DNA of 37,073 nt from a virus (IMGVR_UViG_2778261421_000003:1-37073); one strand, 5' to 3'. Numbered from the stretch's first letter, positions 1 through 33,010 are shown. Translations and numbers: made by a program. The notes: generated by a model from the sequence alone, not told the origin.

Positions 1-141
1 TTACTGCTTACACTGTAAGAACGCCGCAAACTCCGCTCCCCAGAAGCTCATCCGTATTTCGCACAGTGAACCGTGCAGCATCCAGATGATGAGGATTGCC
101 GTCACGCAGAACGTGATGGCCGTAAGCGATTTTTGCGACAT
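1..141 (-). CDS. Hok/Gef-family type I toxin-like small membrane peptide (46 aa)
   Basis: Minus-strand ATG at 139-141 and TAA at 1-3. Translation MSQKSLTAITFCVTAILIIWMLHGSLCEIRMSFWGAEFAAFLQCKQ has one hydrophobic helix followed by the SLCE(I/L) ... E(F/L)AAFL.CK signature I recall from HokA/Hok/Gef peptides. Too short for the supplied ORF track. Confidence 0.5.
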   Translation of the reverse strand: MSQKSLTAITFCVTAILIIWMLHGSLCEIRMSFWGAEFAAFLQCKQ

Positions 142-271
142 AGCACTTGCTCCTTTTCCGGAGAGGCGCTAACCTTTCACTTGTCAAGGTAATGCGGTTA
201 GGGCCTCGGTTAAACAGAGATGTTTTCCGGGGCCTTTCCACATCTGGCCTTCGGGTATTCCCTCCGACCAT
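8..271 (-). other. Overlapping mok-like reading frame upstream of and across the hok-like ORF (possible translational-coupling frame)
   Basis: An 87-aa ORF in a different frame covers the hok-like ORF, as mok does in hok/sok loci. No independent protein signature, so it may be a chance ORF. Confidence 0.2.
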
Positions 272-331
272 CAGCCGAAAGGCACCCGCGCGTAATCTAT
301 CGCTTTTTTGTTAATCCGGCAATTCTGCCTG

Positions 332-592
332 TTAGTTCTGAGGTAAAGGCAAACTCATCTGATTGTTTCCCCTGTGTGAAGCTGGCAGCTCATGCCACGG
401 GATACCTTCTGAAGAGTGAACGGCGGAGGCGTGTTTTGATGTGAATTTATGGAAGGCTTCCAGTGTTGAGAAGCATACGCCGCATTCCAGGTTGTTACAC
501 TGGTAATACTTTTGCCGCACGGTGTTTGAATCATTTTCCGGACGACTTGTGCGGATACGGGCAGATGCGCCACAAAGCGGACAACGGAACAT
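332..592 (-). CDS. ogr: Ogr-type zinc-finger late transcription activator
   Basis: The 86-aa product starts MFRCPLCGASARIRTSR and has a CxxC...CxxxxC cysteine pattern like P2 Ogr. It lies downstream of D on the same strand, as in P2. Confidence 0.8.
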   Translation of the reverse strand: MFRCPLCGASARIRTSRPENDSNTVRQKYYQCNNLECGVCFSTLEAFHKFTSKHASAVHSSEGIPWHELPASHRGNNQMSLPLPQN

Positions 593-749
593 AGAGACCT
601 CCCTTAACGTGGTGCTTCTGTTATTTTAAGTTCTACTAGCTCCGATTCCAACTGACTAAACCGCTTTGAGTTGAGGGGCTGACATTCTTATTATTCGCTT
701 ATCAAAGAATAGCTAGTCAAACCTGATACATTAAAATCAGCACGTTATT

Positions 750-778
750 TTGATTGTGTGATATCATAACATTATGTT
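750..778 (+). promoter_or_regulatory. Candidate sigma70 promoter for the AT-rich cargo gene
   Basis: TTGATT (750-755), 17-nt spacer, TATGTT (773-778), then GAGG about 7 nt before the ATG at 825. Based on hexamer resemblance only. Confidence 0.3.
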
Positions 779-824
779 ATTAATGCGTTAAATTGGGATA
801 TCTAATTCAGATTGTGAGGTATTT

Positions 825-1994
825 ATGGGAAAGAATAGTCAACGTAGGCGAGATAATAAAATTAAGCGAGAAAATGAGAAAAAAAGAAACTTAGCGGCAA
901 AGATAAATAAAATGTTGTATATAAAGCCTGATATATTTTTTGATGAATCAGGTAATACTGGCGGAAATTTACTCGATCCATTGCAACCTGTTTTTACCTT
1001 AAGTTCAAGTAGTATTAGTAAACAGGATGCGCTTAAGGCATTAGAACTAACCGGAAGCAAGTCTCCAACAGAAGCCCACTTTAAAACTCTTAGACGTAGA
1101 AAATCTGGTCAGGATGGCATCATTAGGCTTCTTGAAAGCAAATATGTCAATGAAGAGAATGTTAAAATATACTTGGTCGATAAAAAATACATGCTAACAG
1201 CAAAGATTGTTGATATTTTGATCGAGACGTGGTGCTCTAATAGAGGAATAGATCTTTATATAAATGGACAGAATCTAGCTCTGTCTAATGTTTACTATTT
1301 CTGTTTCCCTGCTTTCTGTGGGGAGGAAAAAACAGAGGTAATGTATCAGTGTTTTATGAATATGATCAGAAGCCAATCGACTGAGTCAATTGATGAATTT
1401 TACAGGGTAATTGATGAGTTAAAGATATGCTCAAGTGATAAGATATTCACAGATATAATAAACAGAATTAGTATTACCAGAAGCGATATTGATGATATAT
1501 TGGAAGGTGTTGAGAAAAGCACATTAGATCCATCTATACCAAGCCTCTTTAGACACTGTGTAGAATGGGGTAAATTATACCCTAATGGTTTTTATATTAA
1601 GCATGACGATTCCAAAGCTATTACAGAGAAGAAAGATATTTTTGATAAATTTATGGATATATCAAAAATTACGGAGGCATATGGTTATGATCGAAGAAAA
1701 TTTGAATTGCCAATTAAAGCTCGTTCTTTGACATTCCATTCATCACAAGAGTATCCTCAATTACAAATTGTAGATATAGTAGCAAGTGCGGCTGCTTATT
1801 ATGTTAACTGTCTAAAAAGAAATGACTTAGAAGATTATCTCTTTAAAGAACTTCAAAGAATAAAAATAGATAACTATTTTAAAAATATGGCCATTTGGCC
1901 TACAACATATGTTACACCTCAAGAATTAGGCACAATTTATACTGGTGGGCGAAACCCTGCAGATGGAGTCGCTGATTATCTTTCTCAATATTAG
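825..1994 (+). CDS. Hypothetical 389-aa protein with DUF3800-like motifs; candidate accessory or anti-phage defence protein
   Basis: Long ORF in a markedly AT-rich island between ogr and D, on the opposite strand to both. Near the N-terminus is YIKPDIFFDESGNTG, and near the C-terminus LQIVDIVASAAAYY, which match my recollection of the DUF3800 family motifs. Has its own promoter-like hexamers and RBS, and a downstream hairpin. Confidence 0.6.
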   Translation: MGKNSQRRRDNKIKRENEKKRNLAAKINKMLYIKPDIFFDESGNTGGNLLDPLQPVFTLSSSSISKQDALKALELTGSKSPTEAHFKTLRRRKSGQDGIIRLLESKYVNEENVKIYLVDKKYMLTAKIVDILIETWCSNRGIDLYINGQNLALSNVYYFCFPAFCGEEKTEVMYQCFMNMIRSQSTESIDEFYRVIDELKICSSDKIFTDIINRISITRSDIDDILEGVEKSTLDPSIPSLFRHCVEWGKLYPNGFYIKHDDSKAITEKKDIFDKFMDISKITEAYGYDRRKFELPIKARSLTFHSSQEYPQLQIVDIVASAAAYYVNCLKRNDLEDYLFKELQRIKIDNYFKNMAIWPTTYVTPQELGTIYTGGRNPADGVADYLSQY

Positions 1995-2016
1995 TAACTG
2001 GAGTTTTAATTAATAT

Positions 2017-2038
2017 GGCCGCGTTAGCGGCCTTTCTA
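2017..2038. terminator. Hairpin between the convergent cargo gene and gene D
   Basis: GGCCGC-gtta-GCGGCC stem-loop followed by TTTCT on the plus strand and an AT-rich run on the minus strand; sits between two convergent stop codons. Confidence 0.45.
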
Positions 2039-2085
2039 ACTATGTTTATTGCTAGTACATATCTGAACTAATACATTTAAGACAT

Positions 2086-3195
2086 TCACGCTGTTTCTGC
2101 TATCCATTCCGGGATTTTTGCCTCAAGCTCAAGCTGCGTGGTAAAGCCGCTGTTATCAATAGTGTGCTCGGCTTTTGCAATGATCCAGTCCTGATTATCA
2201 ATCTCGCTTTTAAATCCTGTTACCGTACCATGCATTTCGGGGTAGAGTTCTGCACGTCCACGCGCCAGCGTGATGGAGAATGATGCGGCTCCGCGTTGTA
2301 GCTGCTGCCACTTTGCCGCCGCTGCGCGTCTTGCTGCCTGCTCGTTCTGATAGGTCTTGCGTAACACAAACACATTGCCTTCCGCGCCTTCCATATAATC
2401 ACCTTCACGGCTGCTGCTTTTCTCCTTTTTGGGTTTTGGCGGTTTGCGGCGTTTCACGCTGACTTTTTTCTTTTTCCCGTAATTAAGATCAAGCCAGTAA
2501 GCGCGTACCCCCGTATACGCTTCGCGGTCAGCAATGCGGAACTGATGGCGATCGCCACTGCTGCGCGTGATGGCGAACGAGGGCAACGGCTGGCCCTGTG
2601 CGTTCACGCCACCGCCTGGCATGATGAATAACAGATTACCGCTTTTTACCGTAGTGATTGCGCCCAGCATTTCTGCCATGCGCGTAAGGAAGGACATGTC
2701 GCTTTCTTCGGTCTGGTCAGCGTGGTCGATTTCAATATCCATCAGCATTTCGCTGATTTGTGGTTTCAGACCGTACCGATGAGCGATGGCGGATACCACG
2801 CGCTCAACGGTCACATCATGCCAGGACACCTCACGTTTAACGTTAAATTCATCCCGAAAATCTGCGCTTCTGGCTGAAACCGTCAGCCTGTCCGGCGGTC
2901 CTTCGTGAGCGATTTCATCAACAATGTAAGTGCCTTTTTCTGTCAGCGGTTCTCCTTTCCAGCCAATGAGAACCGTCAGGCGCGCGCCCCGTGGCGGTAG
3001 CAGCAACTGACCATCCGCATCATCCAGCGTGATGGTGAGCTGGTCCGCCTCAAATCCCCGGTTGTCGGTCAGTGACAGGCTCATCAGGCACTCTGCCACG
3101 CCTGACAGCGTTTTACCCTCCGCGAGAATATCAAAATCCGGCATTTTCACGGGGTCTGTGCCCTGACTGAGCAATTGCATGGTGGTGTCGGTCAT
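2086..3195 (-). CDS. D: P2 gpD-like tail protein
   Basis: The listed ORF runs to 3327, but the likely start is the ATG at 3193-3195 (MTDTTMQLLSQG), preceded by GGAGGGAG. Size of about 369 aa and position next to ogr match P2 D. Confidence 0.8.
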   Translation of the reverse strand: MTDTTMQLLSQGTDPVKMPDFDILAEGKTLSGVAECLMSLSLTDNRGFEADQLTITLDDADGQLLLPPRGARLTVLIGWKGEPLTEKGTYIVDEIAHEGPPDRLTVSARSADFRDEFNVKREVSWHDVTVERVVSAIAHRYGLKPQISEMLMDIEIDHADQTEESDMSFLTRMAEMLGAITTVKSGNLLFIMPGGGVNAQGQPLPSFAITRSSGDRHQFRIADREAYTGVRAYWLDLNYGKKKKVSVKRRKPPKPKKEKSSSREGDYMEGAEGNVFVLRKTYQNEQAARRAAAAKWQQLQRGAASFSITLARGRAELYPEMHGTVTGFKSEIDNQDWIIAKAEHTIDNSGFTTQLELEAKIPEWIAETA

Positions 3196-3352
3196 CTGCT
3201 CCCTCCCTGTGCGGCATGGTCGCATGTGCGTGCGGAGGGGGTTACTGCTTTTTGTTGTCGCCGTGGCGGGAGAACGGCGCAGGGGTGAGATTACGCGCGT
3301 GGTGGGTGATGATTGTTGCCGAATCATTTAACGGATACAAGGGGCTGAAGCT

Positions 3353-4537
3353 ATGAGTGAAACTCGTTTTCATGGTGCCCGTGTTACGGAAAGTACCGAC
3401 CTGGTAACAGCGATTAATGATGTTGATTCCAGCGTTATCGGTATCGTGGCAACGGCGGATGATGCGGACGCGAAGCTGTTCCCGCTGAACAAGCCCACAC
3501 TGCTGACCCGCGTCAATGACGTGCTGGGAAAATGCGGGACAACGGGGACGCTTTATCGTGCGCTTAAGGCCATCGCAGACCAGGTGAGCACAAAGGTGAT
3601 CGTCGTTCGCGTGGCTGAACACAAAGAAGAAAACGGAAAGACGCAGGATCAACTGGTTATCGGTGGTTCTGAATCTGACGGCAGCTATACGGGGATGTAT
3701 GCGCTGCTTGTTGCAGAGCAGGATGAAAGCATCGGATACCGTCCGCGTATTCTGGCCGCGCCGGAGCTGGACACGGAGGCGGTGACAAAATCCCTGTGCG
3801 TGATTGCGGGTAAACTGCGCGCGTTTGTGTATGCCGCATGTCATGGTTGTAACACGATGGCTGAGGCGATTACCTACCGCCAGAAATTCAACGAACGTGA
3901 GGTGATGCTCTTATGGCCTGACTTCATCGCCTACAACCCGAAAAGTGGCAAAAACGAAACGTTCCCCGCGCCTGCTTATGCGTGCGGCCTTCGTGCGTAC
4001 ATTGACCATGAGCAGGGCTGGCACAAATCGCTGTCCAACGTTCCGGTTAAAAATGTGCTGGGGATGTCGAGGCATGTGTTCTGGTCGTTACAGGCCGAAG
4101 ACAGTGATGCCAACAGCCTCAACAACAAAGAAATCACGACCATTATTCGTCGTAACGGGTTCCGCTTCTGGGGCAACCGCACACCGGAAACGAACGCCTA
4201 CATCTTTGAGGTGTATACCCGAACCGCACAGGTGCTGGCTGATTCAATTGCGGAAGCGCAGTTTGAAACCATCGACAGTCCACTGACGCCTGCGAACGTG
4301 AAGGATGTTATCAGTGCCATCAGGGCAAAACTGGATTCACTGGTTACTGCCGGGAAACTGATTGGCGCGGAGTGCTGGTATGACATCGTGGATAACAGCA
4401 CCACGAATTTACGTCAGGGGCGTGTGCGTATTCGCTACAAATATACGCCCGTTCCGCCGCTGGAAGACATGGAGCTTTACCAGTCGTTTACTGATGAATT
4501 CTTTGGTCCCGCATTTGCGGTGCTGGGAGGTGCCTGA
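3353..4537 (+). CDS. FI: Contractile tail sheath protein (gpFI)
   Basis: 394 aa; the N-terminal region (VTAINDVDSSVIGIVATADDADAKLFPLNKPTLL) resembles P2 FI sheath. Immediately followed by the tube gene. Confidence 0.85.
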   Translation: MSETRFHGARVTESTDLVTAINDVDSSVIGIVATADDADAKLFPLNKPTLLTRVNDVLGKCGTTGTLYRALKAIADQVSTKVIVVRVAEHKEENGKTQDQLVIGGSESDGSYTGMYALLVAEQDESIGYRPRILAAPELDTEAVTKSLCVIAGKLRAFVYAACHGCNTMAEAITYRQKFNEREVMLLWPDFIAYNPKSGKNETFPAPAYACGLRAYIDHEQGWHKSLSNVPVKNVLGMSRHVFWSLQAEDSDANSLNNKEITTIIRRNGFRFWGNRTPETNAYIFEVYTRTAQVLADSIAEAQFETIDSPLTPANVKDVISAIRAKLDSLVTAGKLIGAECWYDIVDNSTTNLRQGRVRIRYKYTPVPPLEDMELYQSFTDEFFGPAFAVLGGA

Positions 4538-8945: not shown

Positions 8946-8975
8946 AAAACCGCTAATGGTCAGATTAGCGGTTTT
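8946..8975. terminator. Palindromic hairpin shared by the convergent U and invertase genes
   Basis: Perfect 12-bp stem AAAACCGCTAAT / ATTAGCGGTTTT with a 6-nt loop, followed by TTTTCATTTTCC. The invertase stop codon lies inside the stem. Confidence 0.5.
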
Positions 8976-9564
8976 CATTTTCCTGAGTCTGCCTGGTTGT
9001 TTCTTCAGCCTGTATATCGCCTACAGGGTGATAACGATAAATCGTCGATATGCCGATGTCGTAAATGATCGCCAGTTGTTTCCTGTCATGACCGTTTTTA
9101 ATCAGCCTCGCTATTTGCTCGTGTTGTTCTTTTGTCAACTTCGGGCGACGTCCGCCAATGCGTCCTTGTGCGCGTGCTGCTGCCAGCCCGGCCAGTGTAC
9201 GCTCTACAATTAATTCACGTTCCATTTCGGCTAAAGCCCCCATGACGTGAAAAAAGAAACGCCCCATGGGTGTTGACGTGTCAATGCTGTCCGTCAGACT
9301 ACGGAAATTAACACCTTTTTCCCGCAATTCCTCAATAAGCGTGATCAGGTGTTTCATACTTCTGCCCAGTCTGTCCAGCTTCCAGACAACCAGCGTATCT
9401 CCTTCTGATAGCGTTCTGAGCAGTTTTTTCAATCCCGGTCTGGTTGATTTCGTTCCGCTGATTTTATCTTCAAAAATCAGTTCACATCCTGCGCAGTTCA
9501 GTGCATTGCGTTGTAAATCCGTGTTCTGGTCGTTTGTTGACACACGAATATAGCCAATTTGCAT
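8965..9564 (-). CDS. pin: Serine DNA invertase of the Hin/Gin/Cin/Pin family
   Basis: True start is the ATG at 9562-9564 (MQIGYIRVSTNDQNTDLQ), giving the catalytic-serine motif of small serine recombinases and a C-terminal HTH (GISTIYRY). The upstream extension in the ORF track is rejected. Confidence 0.85.
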   Translation of the reverse strand: MQIGYIRVSTNDQNTDLQRNALNCAGCELIFEDKISGTKSTRPGLKKLLRTLSEGDTLVVWKLDRLGRSMKHLITLIEELREKGVNFRSLTDSIDTSTPMGRFFFHVMGALAEMERELIVERTLAGLAAARAQGRIGGRRPKLTKEQHEQIARLIKNGHDRKQLAIIYDIGISTIYRYHPVGDIQAEETTRQTQENENR

Positions 9565-9578
9565 AAAAAACATCCTCT

Positions 9579-10097
9579 TTGTTTCGTGAAAAATACAGAG
9601 TTGGTATAGGTAGGGATAAAAACGAAAACGTTGGTTTGGGGGAAGGCTCTGCATTGCCTGTTGGTGTACCGGTTCCGTGGCCCACCGCCACACCGCCAGA
9701 AGGCTGGTTAAAGTGCGACGGGCGCGCCTTTACAAAAGAACAATATCCTGTTCTGGCCAGAGCCTACCCGACCCTCCGTCTTCCCGATTTACGCGGTGAA
9801 TTTATTCGTGGCTGGGATGACGGACGTGGTGTGGATGCCGGGCGACAATTATTATCTTCACAGGGGGATGCAATAAGAAATATTGAGGGATTCGCAGATG
9901 GCGGGATCGGTATGTCTTTTGATGCAATCAGAGGGGCTTTTTACGATGCAGGAACACGATCAGCGAGAATGCCGAATAACACAACTACTATAGACAAAAC
10001 CGATGACCTTGGATTCGACGCCTCTCGTGTCGTGCCAACAGCTAATGAAAACCGTCCTCGTAATATTGCCTTTAATTATATCGTAAGGGCGGCATAA
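9579..10097 (+). CDS. Promoterless alternative tail-fibre C-terminal cassette 1 (inverted orientation)
   Basis: Encodes LGLGEGSALPVGVPVPWPTATPPEGWLKCDGRAFTKEQYPVLA ... NIAFNYIVRAA, sharing both its first 65 aa and its last 12 aa with the C-terminus of the minus-strand fibre gene H. The middle is divergent. Confidence 0.6.
   Translation: MFREKYRVGIGRDKNENVGLGEGSALPVGVPVPWPTATPPEGWLKCDGRAFTKEQYPVLARAYPTLRLPDLRGEFIRGWDDGRGVDAGRQLLSSQGDAIRNIEGFADGGIGMSFDAIRGAFYDAGTRSARMPNNTTTIDKTDDLGFDASRVVPTANENRPRNIAFNYIVRAA
9625..9830 (+). repeat. Conserved 5' cassette repeat containing crossover candidate A
   Basis: About 200 bp nearly identical to 10096-10310 and to the reverse complement of 11510-11721. 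Begins AAAACGTTGGTTTGGGGGAAGGCTC, which contains a GGTTT half-site like hix/gix sites. Confidence 0.6.
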
Positions 10098-10310
10098 AAA
10101 CGTTGGTTTGGGGGAAGGCTCGGCGCTGCCCGTTGGTGTACCTGTTCCGTGGCCCACTGCCACACCGCCAGCAGGCTGGTTAAAGTGCGACGGGCGCGCC
10201 TTTACAAAAGAACAATATCCTGTTCTGGCCAGAGTCTACCCGACCCTCCGTCTTCCCGATTTACGCGGTGAGTTTATCCGTGGATGGGACGACGGGCGCA
10301 AAGTTGATAC
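10096..10310 (+). repeat. Conserved 5' cassette repeat containing crossover candidate B
   Basis: Direct repeat of 9625-9830 and inverted repeat of 11510-11721. Confidence 0.6.
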
Positions 10311-10620
10311 AGGACGTAAGTTGCTGTCCGCACAAGGGGCAACGCTGTTAAGAACAGCAATGCTGGATTATTATAACCAGGACACTACGGGAACCTCGGG
10401 GATAGTCGGCATGGGATTCAACAATGAAGATTCCATTACAGACCTTCGTGAGGGCAGCTTTAAAATGCCGGACGGGACAACATTCAGCGATCCTGTCATA
10501 GCAATGTCAGACAATGGTATGCAGGCTACTATTCTGACCTCTATCAGAAGCGGGTATGCGAAGGGTATCACTGTCAGACCCCGTAGCATTGCACTTAATT
10601 ACATTGTGAGGGCAGTTTAA
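10108..10620 (+). CDS. Promoterless alternative tail-fibre C-terminal cassette 2 (inverted orientation)
   Basis: Same conserved head (GEGSALPVGVPVPWPTATPPAGWLKCDGRAFT) and tail (SIALNYIVRAV) with a different middle. Directly followed by a tail fibre assembly gene. Confidence 0.6.
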   Translation: MGEGSALPVGVPVPWPTATPPAGWLKCDGRAFTKEQYPVLARVYPTLRLPDLRGEFIRGWDDGRKVDTGRKLLSAQGATLLRTAMLDYYNQDTTGTSGIVGMGFNNEDSITDLREGSFKMPDGTTFSDPVIAMSDNGMQATILTSIRSGYAKGITVRPRSIALNYIVRAV

Positions 10621-27289: not shown

Positions 27290-27646
27290 ATGGAAATGAA
27301 TATGAAAACTGTAACTGATGATGAATTTCGTGAGAACCTGAGTGAAATTCTGGATTACCTTTCTTCCGGTGGCAGTGTCGTTATCACTGCGCAGGGAGGG
27401 AAGGATGTTGTTCTTGCTGGTTCTGATCTTAGTCCTGAAATACGGGCTGTCCTTGGCAAAACCAAAAAACTGCGGGATCAAATAAACAAAATGAAGCAAC
27501 CACTCTTAATAAATGCAGTGAGAGATCTGGAAAAACGTCATCCAGCTCTTGTCGCACAGAGAAAAAAAGGATTGTCTTTTGAAGATGCAATGAAGCGTAC
27601 AAGAGAAAAACATGCGGATATCATTAAAAAGCTTGAGGATAACTGA
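27290..27646 (+). CDS. Phd/YefM-like antitoxin (extended, about 118 aa)
   Basis: N-terminal region VTDDEFRENLSEILDYLSSGGSVVITAQGGKDVVLAG resembles Phd/YefM antitoxins. Stop overlaps the start of the Doc-like gene (TGATG). Alternative start at the ATG at 27302. Confidence 0.55.
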   Translation: MEMNMKTVTDDEFRENLSEILDYLSSGGSVVITAQGGKDVVLAGSDLSPEIRAVLGKTKKLRDQINKMKQPLLINAVRDLEKRHPALVAQRKKGLSFEDAMKRTREKHADIIKKLEDN

Positions 27647-28053
27647 TGGACATAGTGTTTTTGTCAAAAGAACAAGTAGAACGTATCCATGCTGAAACTT
27701 TACCCCAGAGCGGAAATGCCAATGACGGGCTACTTGAAGGTGCTTTAAATCGCGTCAGGACACTACACTACTATGAAGGGGTTGATGATATTCATGCTCT
27801 GGCTGCTATGTATTTGATTGGTATAGCCAAGGCTCATGCCTTTCATGATGGGAATAAACGCACAGCTTTTCAGGCTGCATCAATATTTTTAATGATGAAC
27901 TCTTCCGAACTTTCAAACTCCCTGCTGCTGGTTAAATTAACGGTGTTTTCAGCAATGGGGATAGCTACCCTTGAGGAAGTTACCTTTGCTTTGAAATTGC
28001 TGTCTGATTATGGCAATGAATTAATCAGCGACTACGAAGAAGATTATATTTAA
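27646..28053 (+). CDS. doc: Doc (Fic/Doc family) toxin
   Basis: 135 aa with HAFHDGNKRTAF, matching the Fic/Doc HxFx(D/N)GNKR catalytic motif. Translationally coupled to the upstream antitoxin. Confidence 0.75.
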   Translation: MDIVFLSKEQVERIHAETLPQSGNANDGLLEGALNRVRTLHYYEGVDDIHALAAMYLIGIAKAHAFHDGNKRTAFQAASIFLMMNSSELSNSLLLVKLTVFSAMGIATLEEVTFALKLLSDYGNELISDYEEDYI

Positions 28054-32179: not shown

Positions 32180-33010
32180 TTACTTCACCGGAACAAACGG
32201 AACAGCGGTGTTACTGGTCATGTATTGCGGTAGCGTGCCGTTCCATTTGTTAATCGCTTCCAGCTCCATAACGCCGGGATTCTGGCGCAGAGCTTCACCG
32301 CGTAAACGAATGGCGTCGGCTTCAGCCTGGGCTTTTGTGCGAATGGCATCGGCTTGTCCGGCAGCTTCTGCGCGCAGCATGTTGGCTTCAGCTTCGCGTT
32401 GCTTGACTTCCTGTTCACGTTGCAGGGTTTTCTGGTTTGCCGTGACTTTGGCATTAATGCTGTCGATAACGGTTGGCGGGTATTCCGGCTTACCCACATA
32501 AGAGAGGCTCATTACCTGAATGCCGATAGGTGTCATTTCTGCCTGAATGTCTTTAAGTGCTGAATCCAGCAGTTCAGACTTGCCACCGTCGATAAATTTA
32601 TCGGTGGTCATTTTGCTGGCCAGTCGGTTGAGTGCGTCGGCGATCTTCTGGCGCAGGTCAGTGTCGGTAATGTCATCCACGCCTTTGCGGTAGGTCTGAA
32701 ACACTGTAGTAACTTTGGATGGATCAACCTTGTAGGCCACACCGATGTGATAGCCGATGGTTGTGCCGTCACTCATCTGAAAGCTGAACGGCTCATCGTA
32801 GGTCTTCATTTGTTTGAAGGTCGGGAAGATGTAAACCTCGGTATTCCAGCCAGTCCAGTAGCGGCCAACGCCAACCACTTCGCCAACGCCTTTGTCGTCG
32901 CCCAGCTTGTTGACTTTGATGCCCACATTACCTGGCTCAACGCGATCGCAGCCAACCAGCAGGATGGCGGCAAAAAGCGGGAGAATCTGAAAGAGTTTGA
33001 ATTTCTTCAT
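32180..33010 (-). CDS. SPFH/band-7 (stomatin/prohibitin-like) domain lipoprotein
   Basis: 276 aa with lipobox LLVGCD, a central SPFH-like region and a C-terminal Ala/Glu/Arg-rich coiled coil (QREQEVKQREAEANMLRAEAAGQADAIRTKAQAEADAIRLRGEAL). Confidence 0.65.
   Translation of the reverse strand: MKKFKLFQILPLFAAILLVGCDRVEPGNVGIKVNKLGDDKGVGEVVGVGRYWTGWNTEVYIFPTFKQMKTYDEPFSFQMSDGTTIGYHIGVAYKVDPSKVTTVFQTYRKGVDDITDTDLRQKIADALNRLASKMTTDKFIDGGKSELLDSALKDIQAEMTPIGIQVMSLSYVGKPEYPPTVIDSINAKVTANQKTLQREQEVKQREAEANMLRAEAAGQADAIRTKAQAEADAIRLRGEALRQNPGVMELEAINKWNGTLPQYMTSNTAVPFVPVK

Follow-up and report, generated by a model that had tools for sequence, protein, structure and literature searches.

The ogr-D junction of a P2-related prophage in Escherichia coli carries an inserted AT-rich island with a single gene, which encodes a protein of the DUF3800 family. 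According to the explanation that we find, as a whole, on balance probable, this island is a horizontally acquired and self-contained moron cassette consisting of a promoter region, one gene and a hairpin, and its product would be a nuclease made in the lysogen and acting in anti-phage or inter-element conflict.

Carrier prophage and limits of the island

The window, which is the whole stretch of DNA analysed (37,073 nucleotides), is a P2-related prophage adjoining ihfA on the chromosome of an E. coli strain of O104:H4 type. The island and its flanks are 100% identical in 2009EL-2071 and other strains; among the carriers is the O104:H4 lineage of the 2011 outbreak, strains of which have an ISKpn26 insertion. 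The initial annotation had called the phage P2-like, which is correct as to its relatedness to P2; it is not P2 proper, however, but a P88-like phage (Xuanwuvirus, Peduoviridae). The genes D and ogr are transcribed divergently from the sheath gene FI, whereas the P2 order is colinear, and the nearest sequenced phages, P88 and P884B11 (Xuanwuvirus), 500465-2 and Shae_phiSM, are 94-97% identical over the flanks. A megablast search of the island against 50,697 phage genomes gave no match, i.e., no sequenced phage carries it, and tblastn against phages found only distant DUF3800 genes, in three phages. The features of the locus are listed in Table 1. The frame of D is open to 3327 (ORF 2086..3327, minus strand), with a probable start at Met45 at 3195, and D genes of 1,110 nt (369 aa) are annotated in relatives by RefSeq. 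The left prophage end carries hok/sok at 1-290, where the sok RNA match (128-287, E = 4.8e-9, 48.4 bits) is below the Rfam gathering score of 59. The slot between gpQ (portal) and gpA carries Phd/Doc.

Table 1. Features of the ogr-D region (positions in the window)
Feature	Position	Strand	Details
ogr, late-gene activator	332..592	-	zinc finger, 86 aa; Pfam Ogr_Delta 4.7e-14; RefSeq annotation
ogr leader	593..632	-	-10-like TAAAAT (628-623) and ogr ribosome-binding site; kept in empty and occupied sites
Inserted island	633..2085	.	1,453 bp, ~33% GC, ogr-D junction; comparison with empty site
Left adapter	633..656	-	consensus CAGTTGGARTCTGAGC; common to all occupied junctions
Upstream/promoter region co-moving with the gene	663..824	+	Klebsiella ssrA-island identity begins at 663
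Promoter-like site	666-694	+	TTGAGT-17-TATTAT; promoter scan
Promoter-like site	750-778	+	TTGATT-17-TATGTT; read from sequence
Ribosome-binding site	816-819	+	GAGG, 5 nt before ATG
DUF3800 gene	825..1994	+	389 aa plus stop codon
G+C-rich hairpin, terminator-like	2017..2032	.	GGCCGC-GTTA-GCGGCC; z = -3.15 vs shuffles
Island right flank	2036..2085	.	2062-2085 = right adapter (TCTGARYTAATACATYTAAG...) common to other cargo variants
Tail/baseplate hub gene D	2086..3195	-	Pfam Phage_GPD 2.1e-17; 369 aa
Sheath gene FI	3353-4537	+	divergent from D, followed by other tail genes

In the unoccupied junction of E. coli 55989 and the closest relatives, 42 bp lie between the ogr ATG and the D stop codon. 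Because homology to the empty 55989 junction breaks at 632 and resumes at 2086, the insert corresponds to 633-2085. The AT-rich island had been proposed to begin at 593; its low GC was borne out, and its start has to be moved to 633. The GC content is 0.30-0.37 over 600-2000, the lowest stretch of the whole window, whereas the remaining ~35 kb is almost all at 0.47-0.62; the moron itself has 0.33 vs 0.53. The single open reading frame lies on the strand opposite to ogr and D, as previously described, and the promoter-like hexamers, ribosome-binding site and downstream hairpin are present. The promoter and terminator of the DUF3800 gene are pattern matches only, and we infer that it is expressed from its own promoter. 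A second, hidden partner gene was also considered for the island and rejected, the candidates being short ORFs that overlap the main frame and were treated as spurious.

From 663 to 2035, the island shares 80% nucleotide identity with its counterpart in an ssrA/smpB genomic island of Klebsiella. The conserved block takes in 162 nt upstream of the ATG as well as the hairpin, which lies between the convergent DUF3800 and D genes; since the promoter region, gene and hairpin all lie inside this block, together they make up the mobile unit. The view of the gene as a moron was upheld: close relatives are without it, its composition is different, it is on the opposite strand, and the upstream region and hairpin were transferred together with it. 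The DUF3800 gene has a GC content of 0.30-0.40 in every host examined, including the Pseudomonas locus at 0.66 GC. Among enterobacterial copies, dN/dS is 0.05-0.13, and we therefore regard it as a functional gene under purifying selection and not as decaying cargo.

Direct and inverted repeat searches found no terminal inverted repeats above chance at the island, and a shuffle-controlled comparison of left and right flanks was likewise not above chance for it; only the YecA cargo variant beat its shuffles. An insertion sequence or transposon was ruled out, there being neither terminal inverted repeats nor a transposase Pfam match. In E. coli genomes the island occurs as one copy per genome at a single site.

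The ogr-D junction as a variable cargo slot

The flanks ogr and D were found in 1,517 of 5,426 complete E. coli genomes, and the DUF3800 cassette in 36 of the 5,426, always at an identity of at least 99%, so that ~2% of related prophages carry it. The junction was surveyed, as had been proposed, in an evenly spaced sample of 42 E. coli junctions that keep both flanks, and it is not uniformly occupied: 24 are empty (~57%), one has only an IS30 in D, and 17 contain cargo. The cargo comprises DUF3800 (two junctions), a 500-aa PIN_4 protein (five), a SEC-C/YecA-like protein (four), a ParA/AAA_31-like protein (one) and annotated hypothetical proteins (five). Three of these hypothetical cargos were examined: one bears a weak resemblance to HEPN (RiboL-PSP), and the others, of 221 and 384 aa, had no Pfam match. 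The cargo in the sampled junctions is found in either orientation and is always one gene of 1.0-2.0 kb. Six alternative cargo proteins searched against PADLOC models gave no full-length match and two short, weak ones. The ogr-D junction is thus a cargo hotspot.

When seven cargo variants were aligned with the empty site, the occupied junctions proved to carry short adapters absent from the latter, with CAGTTGGARTCTGAGC...CAACTTAGAATAG on the ogr side and TCTGAGYTAATACATYTAAGTTGC on the D side. The empty site has one ATTCTAAGTTGC, and cargo is flanked by versions of TAAGTTG. The left adapter contains a -35-like TTGGAR located 17 nt from a conserved -10 (TAGAAT or TAAAAT) before ogr; in the window it supplies TTGGAA (651-646) for the predicted ogr promoter (scan of the minus strand, 651->623). 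The left adapter has probably been conserved because ogr, when cargo parts it from D, still has to be expressed. Previous studies of P2 hotspots named gpA-gpQ, Z/fun, the int/att region and "tail protein to CI", and the last of these may overlap the D-ogr junction in part. We found no account in the accessible literature of a cargo hotspot with conserved adapters at the D-ogr junction of P88-like phages. Since the slot is present in ~1,500 sequenced E. coli genomes and its cargo is mostly uncharacterised, it offers a cheap source of candidates.

Protein family and conserved residues

The DUF3800 assignment proposed initially was confirmed by Pfam, where PF12686 was matched with E = 3.5e-10 and 41.2 bits (the gathering threshold is 21) over positions 2-148 of the 149 in the profile, and the profile search assigned the protein to this family and to no well-characterised housekeeping or phage structural family. 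Both motifs reported earlier are present, FFDESGNTG at residues 38-46 and LQIVDIVASAAAYY at residues 313-326. The hallmarks of DUF3800 are an N-terminal DE motif and a C-terminal QxxD motif (PMC7736814), here represented by D40-E41 and Q314-x-x-D317, which are invariant in 40 close homologues; in a set of 134 distant representatives, whose identity to the query is just 24-43%, they are retained in 96-99%. Residues kept in at least 90% of the 134 are D40, E41, G43, T45, G46, Q54, E83, K120, D130, E134, D235, W248, D261, S263, Q314 and D317.

A word-indexed search recovered 154 relatives, a tight group of 390-400-aa proteins from Enterobacterales, Pseudomonas, Aeromonas, Vibrio, Shewanella, Halomonas and Psychrobacter. 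The exhaustive profile search found 1,775 clusters at 50% identity with E <= 1e-3, including 427 with E <= 1e-30; almost all are 355-370 aa long and match profile positions ~35-390, and the N-terminal Lys/Arg-rich segment is kept in only three of the best 150 clusters. Long-form stand-alone DUF3800 proteins amount to a few hundred 50%-identity clusters on prophages, plasmids and islands. The protein matched only phrog_12991 in PHROGs ("unknown function"), no family in PADLOC-DB v2.0.0 at E <= 1, and none in NCBIfam. It is already named "DUF3800 domain-containing protein" in RefSeq, and the family, its predicted fold and a loose association with immunity have already been published.

Predicted fold and active site

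The structure prediction suggested with the first description of the gene gave a confident AlphaFold (AF2) model (pLDDT 85.9, pTM 0.83) with an RNase H-like fold. The model consists of an N-terminal basic helix (3-32), strands 36-42, 56-62 and 113-119, a helix (120-138), a five-helix insertion (~146-251, ~105 residues), strands 256-261 and 299-305, and a helix (311-331). The product is thus predicted to be a stand-alone "long-form" protein, in which an RNase H-fold core is interrupted by a helical domain; the Lys/Arg-rich helix before the core is clade-specific. In the model, D40/E41 are on strand 1, D261 is at the end of strand 4, and D317 and Q314 are on the helix after strand 5. Judged by secondary-structure order and conservation, the predicted catalytic residues are D40/E41, D130/E134, D261 and Q314/D317. 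Of these, D40, E41, D261 and D317 are candidates for the DEDD tetrad of type 2 RNases H and lie on the elements where an RNase H-fold enzyme would be expected to have it, and D130/E134, on the helix after strand 3, would offer another possible site for the glutamate.

The DESGNTG loop is reminiscent of the DEVGRGP loop in RNase HII. A comparison of the DUF3800 family profile with E. coli RnhB by hhalign gave a probability of 0.35% (the RnhB sequence used was verified to be identical to 7uwe_C), and an HMM search of all PDB sequences found no RNase H; sequence-level kinship to RNase HII was rejected on these two results. We therefore describe the protein as RNase H2-like by its predicted fold and not as a member of the RNase HII family, in agreement with published remarks on other DUF3800 proteins (PMC7736814; PMC10910872). 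The product is probably a metal-dependent nuclease of the RNase H superfamily.

Genomic neighbourhoods of homologues

The Klebsiella homologue (85% identity) is located in the ssrA island directly after a TerB_N/TerB_C gene, which is followed by SngB and SngC (Shango) and then by PtuA/PtuB (Septu), with PADLOC E-values of 1e-78 to 1e-280 for these Shango and Septu genes. In Aeromonas, the homologue (48%) belongs to an integrase island linked to a tRNA, where it is flanked by a TIR protein and a CHAT-like protein, with HamA/HamB (Hachiman) beyond, and the Vibrio cholerae homologue (45%) adjoins a type I restriction-modification system and an integrase fragment. The Yersinia homologue (70%) is found on plasmids and in Tn3 contexts and is invariably accompanied by an FRG protein (PDC-S15) and by a protein of 191-195 aa. 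The Proteus homologue (74%) is a moron that follows the tail-tip genes in a lambdoid prophage, and the Serratia homologue (77%) is in a CP4-57-like island. Pseudomonas and Agarivorans homologues are found in small islets without recognisable defence genes. Further relatives are carried by two Shewanella and 37 Acinetobacter plasmids. The classical Z/fun hotspot of the P2-like phage 899, which lies between FI and the tail-fibre assembly gene, is the site of a distant DUF3800 gene (348 aa, 26.3 bits). In a qualitative reading of these neighbourhoods, homologues recur near defence systems and in prophage cargo slots.

Possible functions of the DUF3800 protein

A role in anti-phage or inter-element conflict is held to be the best explanation because the gene is foreign and mobile and adjoins validated defence systems, because two P2-family hotspots are occupied, and because other DUF3800 forms are linked to retrons or CRISPR. 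In the mechanism that we propose, the gene would be expressed in the lysogen from its own promoter, and the self-contained nuclease would cut nucleic acid appearing during infection and protect the host, hence the prophage, against other phages or mobile elements, either by direct interference or by abortive infection. For such a fold, the most natural substrate may be an RNA-DNA hybrid or an intermediate of replication or recombination, and this is the weakest step of the mechanism. We lean towards this explanation as a whole, whose phenotype, substrate and activity are inferred. To our knowledge, cleavage of RNA-DNA hybrids or replication intermediates has been shown for no stand-alone anti-phage system, and we know of no DUF3800 member with demonstrated activity. 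In the searchable literature we found no phenotype for a stand-alone DUF3800 protein and no catalogue entry for the long form. It speaks against this explanation that a constitutively made, partnerless nuclease would need auto-inhibition or restriction to its substrate, and that the Pseudomonas and Agarivorans islets are not rich in defence genes.

The same mobility could also be read as that of selfish or addictive cargo without an immune role, either a toxic nuclease that is costly to lose or a hitch-hiker recombining via the hotspot flanks. The gene is AT-rich and promiscuous, occurring on many kinds of mobile element, and addiction modules are common here, with hok/sok at the same prophage end and Phd/Doc in the gpQ-gpA slot. 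We nevertheless regard such a role as unlikely, since no antitoxin partner or conserved flanking RNA moves with the gene (the flanks are 22-120 bp in Vibrio and Aeromonas, with no Rfam matches) and no terminal inverted repeats rise above chance. It also overlaps with the main explanation, as many toxin-antitoxin or "addiction" modules prove to be anti-phage.

A counter-defence or phage-benefit gene, whose RNase H-like product would destroy host immune nucleic acid or process the phage's own replication intermediates, would be consistent with a location in a phage next to late genes, with the fact that RNase H-fold enzymes act on RNA-DNA hybrids, the chemistry found in retron msDNA (PMC7736814), and with the few anti-defence genes among P2-like prophages in a 2026 P2/P4 survey (10.64898/2026.02.27.708500). 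Its candidate targets are retron msDNA, guide RNAs and nucleic-acid signals. However, close homologues reside in non-phage islands and plasmids amid defence systems, where an anti-defence use is not obvious, and a gene present in ~2% of related prophages is not needed for the phage life cycle. The gene also faces the other way from the late operon and brings an upstream region of its own, an arrangement typical of morons expressed in the lysogen. We consider counter-defence decidedly unlikely.

A nuclease that needs a non-coding RNA, nearby or elsewhere, as guide, antitoxin or activator is very improbable: although other DUF3800 genes are linked to 11 structured RNA motifs or to retron/CRISPR RNAs, none of the Rfam RNAs DUF3800-I to -XI was found at positions 1-3400 of the window at E <= 10 or, at the gathering threshold, in six homologous loci; region 663..824 has no Rfam match and no significant RNA structure, folding no better than shuffles (z = +0.6); and conservation upstream ends at the start codon in Proteus and 20 nt ahead of it in Yersinia, while the short-flanked Vibrio and Aeromonas copies have almost no non-coding DNA.

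Going beyond the lysogen-expressed nuclease of this prophage, we tentatively raise the possibility, which we hold to be well short of probable, that the stand-alone DUF3800 proteins of the long form are a single-protein immune system so far unrecognised, which would sense an infection-specific nucleic acid structure, with RNA-DNA hybrids or replication intermediates as natural candidates, and cut it with an RNase H2-like active site, and that D-ogr of P88-like phages is a further prophage defence hotspot. If so, the junction could be mined for new systems, as the six alternative cargos examined are without a convincing PADLOC match. Should the E. coli copy prove to have a phenotype, a function could be assigned to the family as a whole and its retron and CRISPR links would be easier to explain, and this copy is the simplest test case, having one gene with its own signals, a tractable host and clear catalytic-residue mutants.

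Comparison with known systems

Previous studies predicted DUF3800 to be the RNase H2-like effector of type VII retrons, encoded either by a stand-alone gene (VII-A2) or as a fusion to the reverse transcriptase (VII-A1) (PMC7736814). The protein described here has in common with that effector the DUF3800 domain, the N-terminal DE motif and the RNase H2-like predicted fold, and both genes are found in a mobile, defence-linked genomic context. Unlike the type VII retron, the island is a single-gene unit without a reverse transcriptase or msr/msd nearby. The glutamine of QxxD is kept here (Q314), whereas the retron-linked clade is without it according to PMC7736814, and the present form is much longer (~355-390 aa) and includes a helical insertion and, at the N terminus, a basic helix. 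Membership in retron type VII was rejected, as no RVT domain and no Rfam retron RNA were found and the island has a single gene.

DUF3800 is also known as an accessory of Cas12a2/a3 and type VI-F CRISPR loci (PMC10910872, PMC12669027, PMC13594972). The TPR-DUF3800 accessories of Cas12a2/Cas12a3 and type VI-F belong to the same domain family and are likewise predicted RNase H-fold nucleases in an immune context, but the gene studied here stands alone, with no TPR domain in Pfam and no cas genes or CRISPR array in the island. Type 2 RNases H (RNase HII/HIII and eukaryotic RNase H2A) have no detectable sequence-profile relation to the DUF3800 protein, which differs from them in its ~105-residue helical insertion and terminal extensions and, as an accessory and mobile gene product, from housekeeping enzymes.

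As to the insertion site, the ogr-D slot resembles the known P2-like hotspots, old/tin between gpA and gpQ and Z/fun between G and FI, in being a presence/absence slot between core genes and in receiving alternative, mostly single-gene, AT-rich cargo in either orientation (PMC9122126; 10.1101/2024.10.15.618418). It differs from them in its position and in having its own conserved adapters, the left of which rebuilds the predicted ogr promoter.

Proposed Cargo Exchange at the ogr-D Junction

The junction between ogr and the tail gene D, which holds the DUF3800 cassette in this prophage, was found to carry other single-gene cargos in related loci (listed in the table below). Comparison of the window (593-656 and 2062-2085) and six junctions with other cargo (L015, L016, L023-L026) against the empty junction L014 revealed two adapters, a left one of ~35 bp and a right one of ~25 bp, which are common to all occupied junctions and absent from the empty one. 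Versions of TAAGTTG lie on both sides of the cargo, whereas the empty site has a single copy. The arrangement looks as though a single ancestral insertion had been followed by exchange of cargo between the adapters. The left adapter also restores a predicted -35 element for ogr.

The cargos at L024-L026 comprise a 340-aa weakly HEPN (RiboL-PSP)-like protein together with a 221-aa and a 384-aa protein, and neither of the latter two has a Pfam match. None of the six alternative cargo proteins gave a full-length match to a PADLOC defence-system model; short and weak matches were obtained for two, the SEC-C/YecA protein (E1-E2/E2 models) and the ParA-like protein (PDC-M28B). All six are regarded as putative candidates.

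Cargo genes of ogr-D junctions and further prophage genes (bare coordinates refer to the window)
Feature	Position	Strand	Remarks
PIN_4 protein, 500 aa	L015:2187-3689		single-gene cargo, ogr-D junction
Protein with N-terminal SEC-C motif (SEC-C/YecA), 379 aa	L016:2234-3373		single-gene cargo, ogr-D junction
ParA/AAA_31 protein, 352 aa	L023:904-1962		single-gene cargo, ogr-D junction
Cargo gene	L024:793-1458		single-gene cargo, ogr-D junction
Cargo gene	L025:851-2005		single-gene cargo, ogr-D junction
Cargo gene	L026:835-1857		single-gene cargo, ogr-D junction
Hok ORF	1-141	-
sok RNA	128-287	-	Rfam match 48 bits, below gathering score 59
Hin/Gin-type DNA invertase gene	8968-9693		adjoins tail-fibre genes
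SPFH/Band-7 protein gene	32183-33010		early region

DUF3800 Genes in Other Contexts

The P2-like Escherichia phage 899 (PV533660.1) has a distant DUF3800 gene (L027:3983-5029; 348 aa, Pfam 26.3 bits) in the classical Z/fun hotspot. The gene in front of it (L027:2318-3703) encodes a 461-aa protein whose match to AHJR-like nucleases is weak; Yersinia phage GMG73 has the same sequence. In the Yersinia loci (L017-L020: 5488-9170), two genes always precede the DUF3800 gene, one for an FRG-domain protein (PADLOC candidate PDC-S15) and one for a protein of 191-195 aa; this holds in four plasmid and Tn3 contexts that otherwise differ, and the three genes may form a module in this lineage. The Aeromonas gene lies between two genes (L008:6684-7880 and 9296-10357), for a TIR_2 and a CHAT-like protein, whose products match different halves of a single PADLOC model, PDC-S66; the DUF3800 gene seems to lie inside, or to have split, this candidate system.

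ISKpn26 and the Annotation of D in O104:H4 Genomes

In the 2011 outbreak O104:H4 genomes listed, ISKpn26 (IS5 family) is inserted at CTAG, window 636-639 (compare L002:2547-3743). Among the genomes listed, at least seven of the 36 cassette carriers possess it, including 2011C-3493, C227-11, and HUSEC2011. The site falls within the 17-nt spacer of the predicted ogr promoter, between -35 (TTGGAA) and -10 (TAAAAT); the DUF3800 start codon is ~185 nt downstream, and the cassette (663-2035) is intact despite the insertion. ISKpn26 may alter ogr expression and therefore, as we propose, late-gene activation of the prophage.

RefSeq divides D in O104:H4 genomes (L001:7494-8347) into an 801-nt CDS of the 'VgrG/Pvc8 family' and a 93-nt pseudogene fragment. 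The D frame in the window (2086-3327) is open over 413 codons, and the D protein of relatives is annotated as 369 aa; the split is probably an annotation artefact and not a damaged gene.

Other Features of the Prophage

A hok/sok-type toxin-antisense RNA module (window 1-290) is located at the prophage end adjoining ogr, and its conservation extends to all related prophages examined. An SPFH/Band-7 protein is also encoded. The position of the Hin/Gin-type invertase gene beside the tail-fibre genes suggests a possible host-range switch. Finally, the slot between gpQ (portal) and gpA (replication), window 27290-28053, where GC falls to 0.41, contains a Fic/Doc toxin and a Phd-like antitoxin (29.2 bits, below the Pfam cut-off of 29.8); this slot is the equivalent of the old/tin position in P2.
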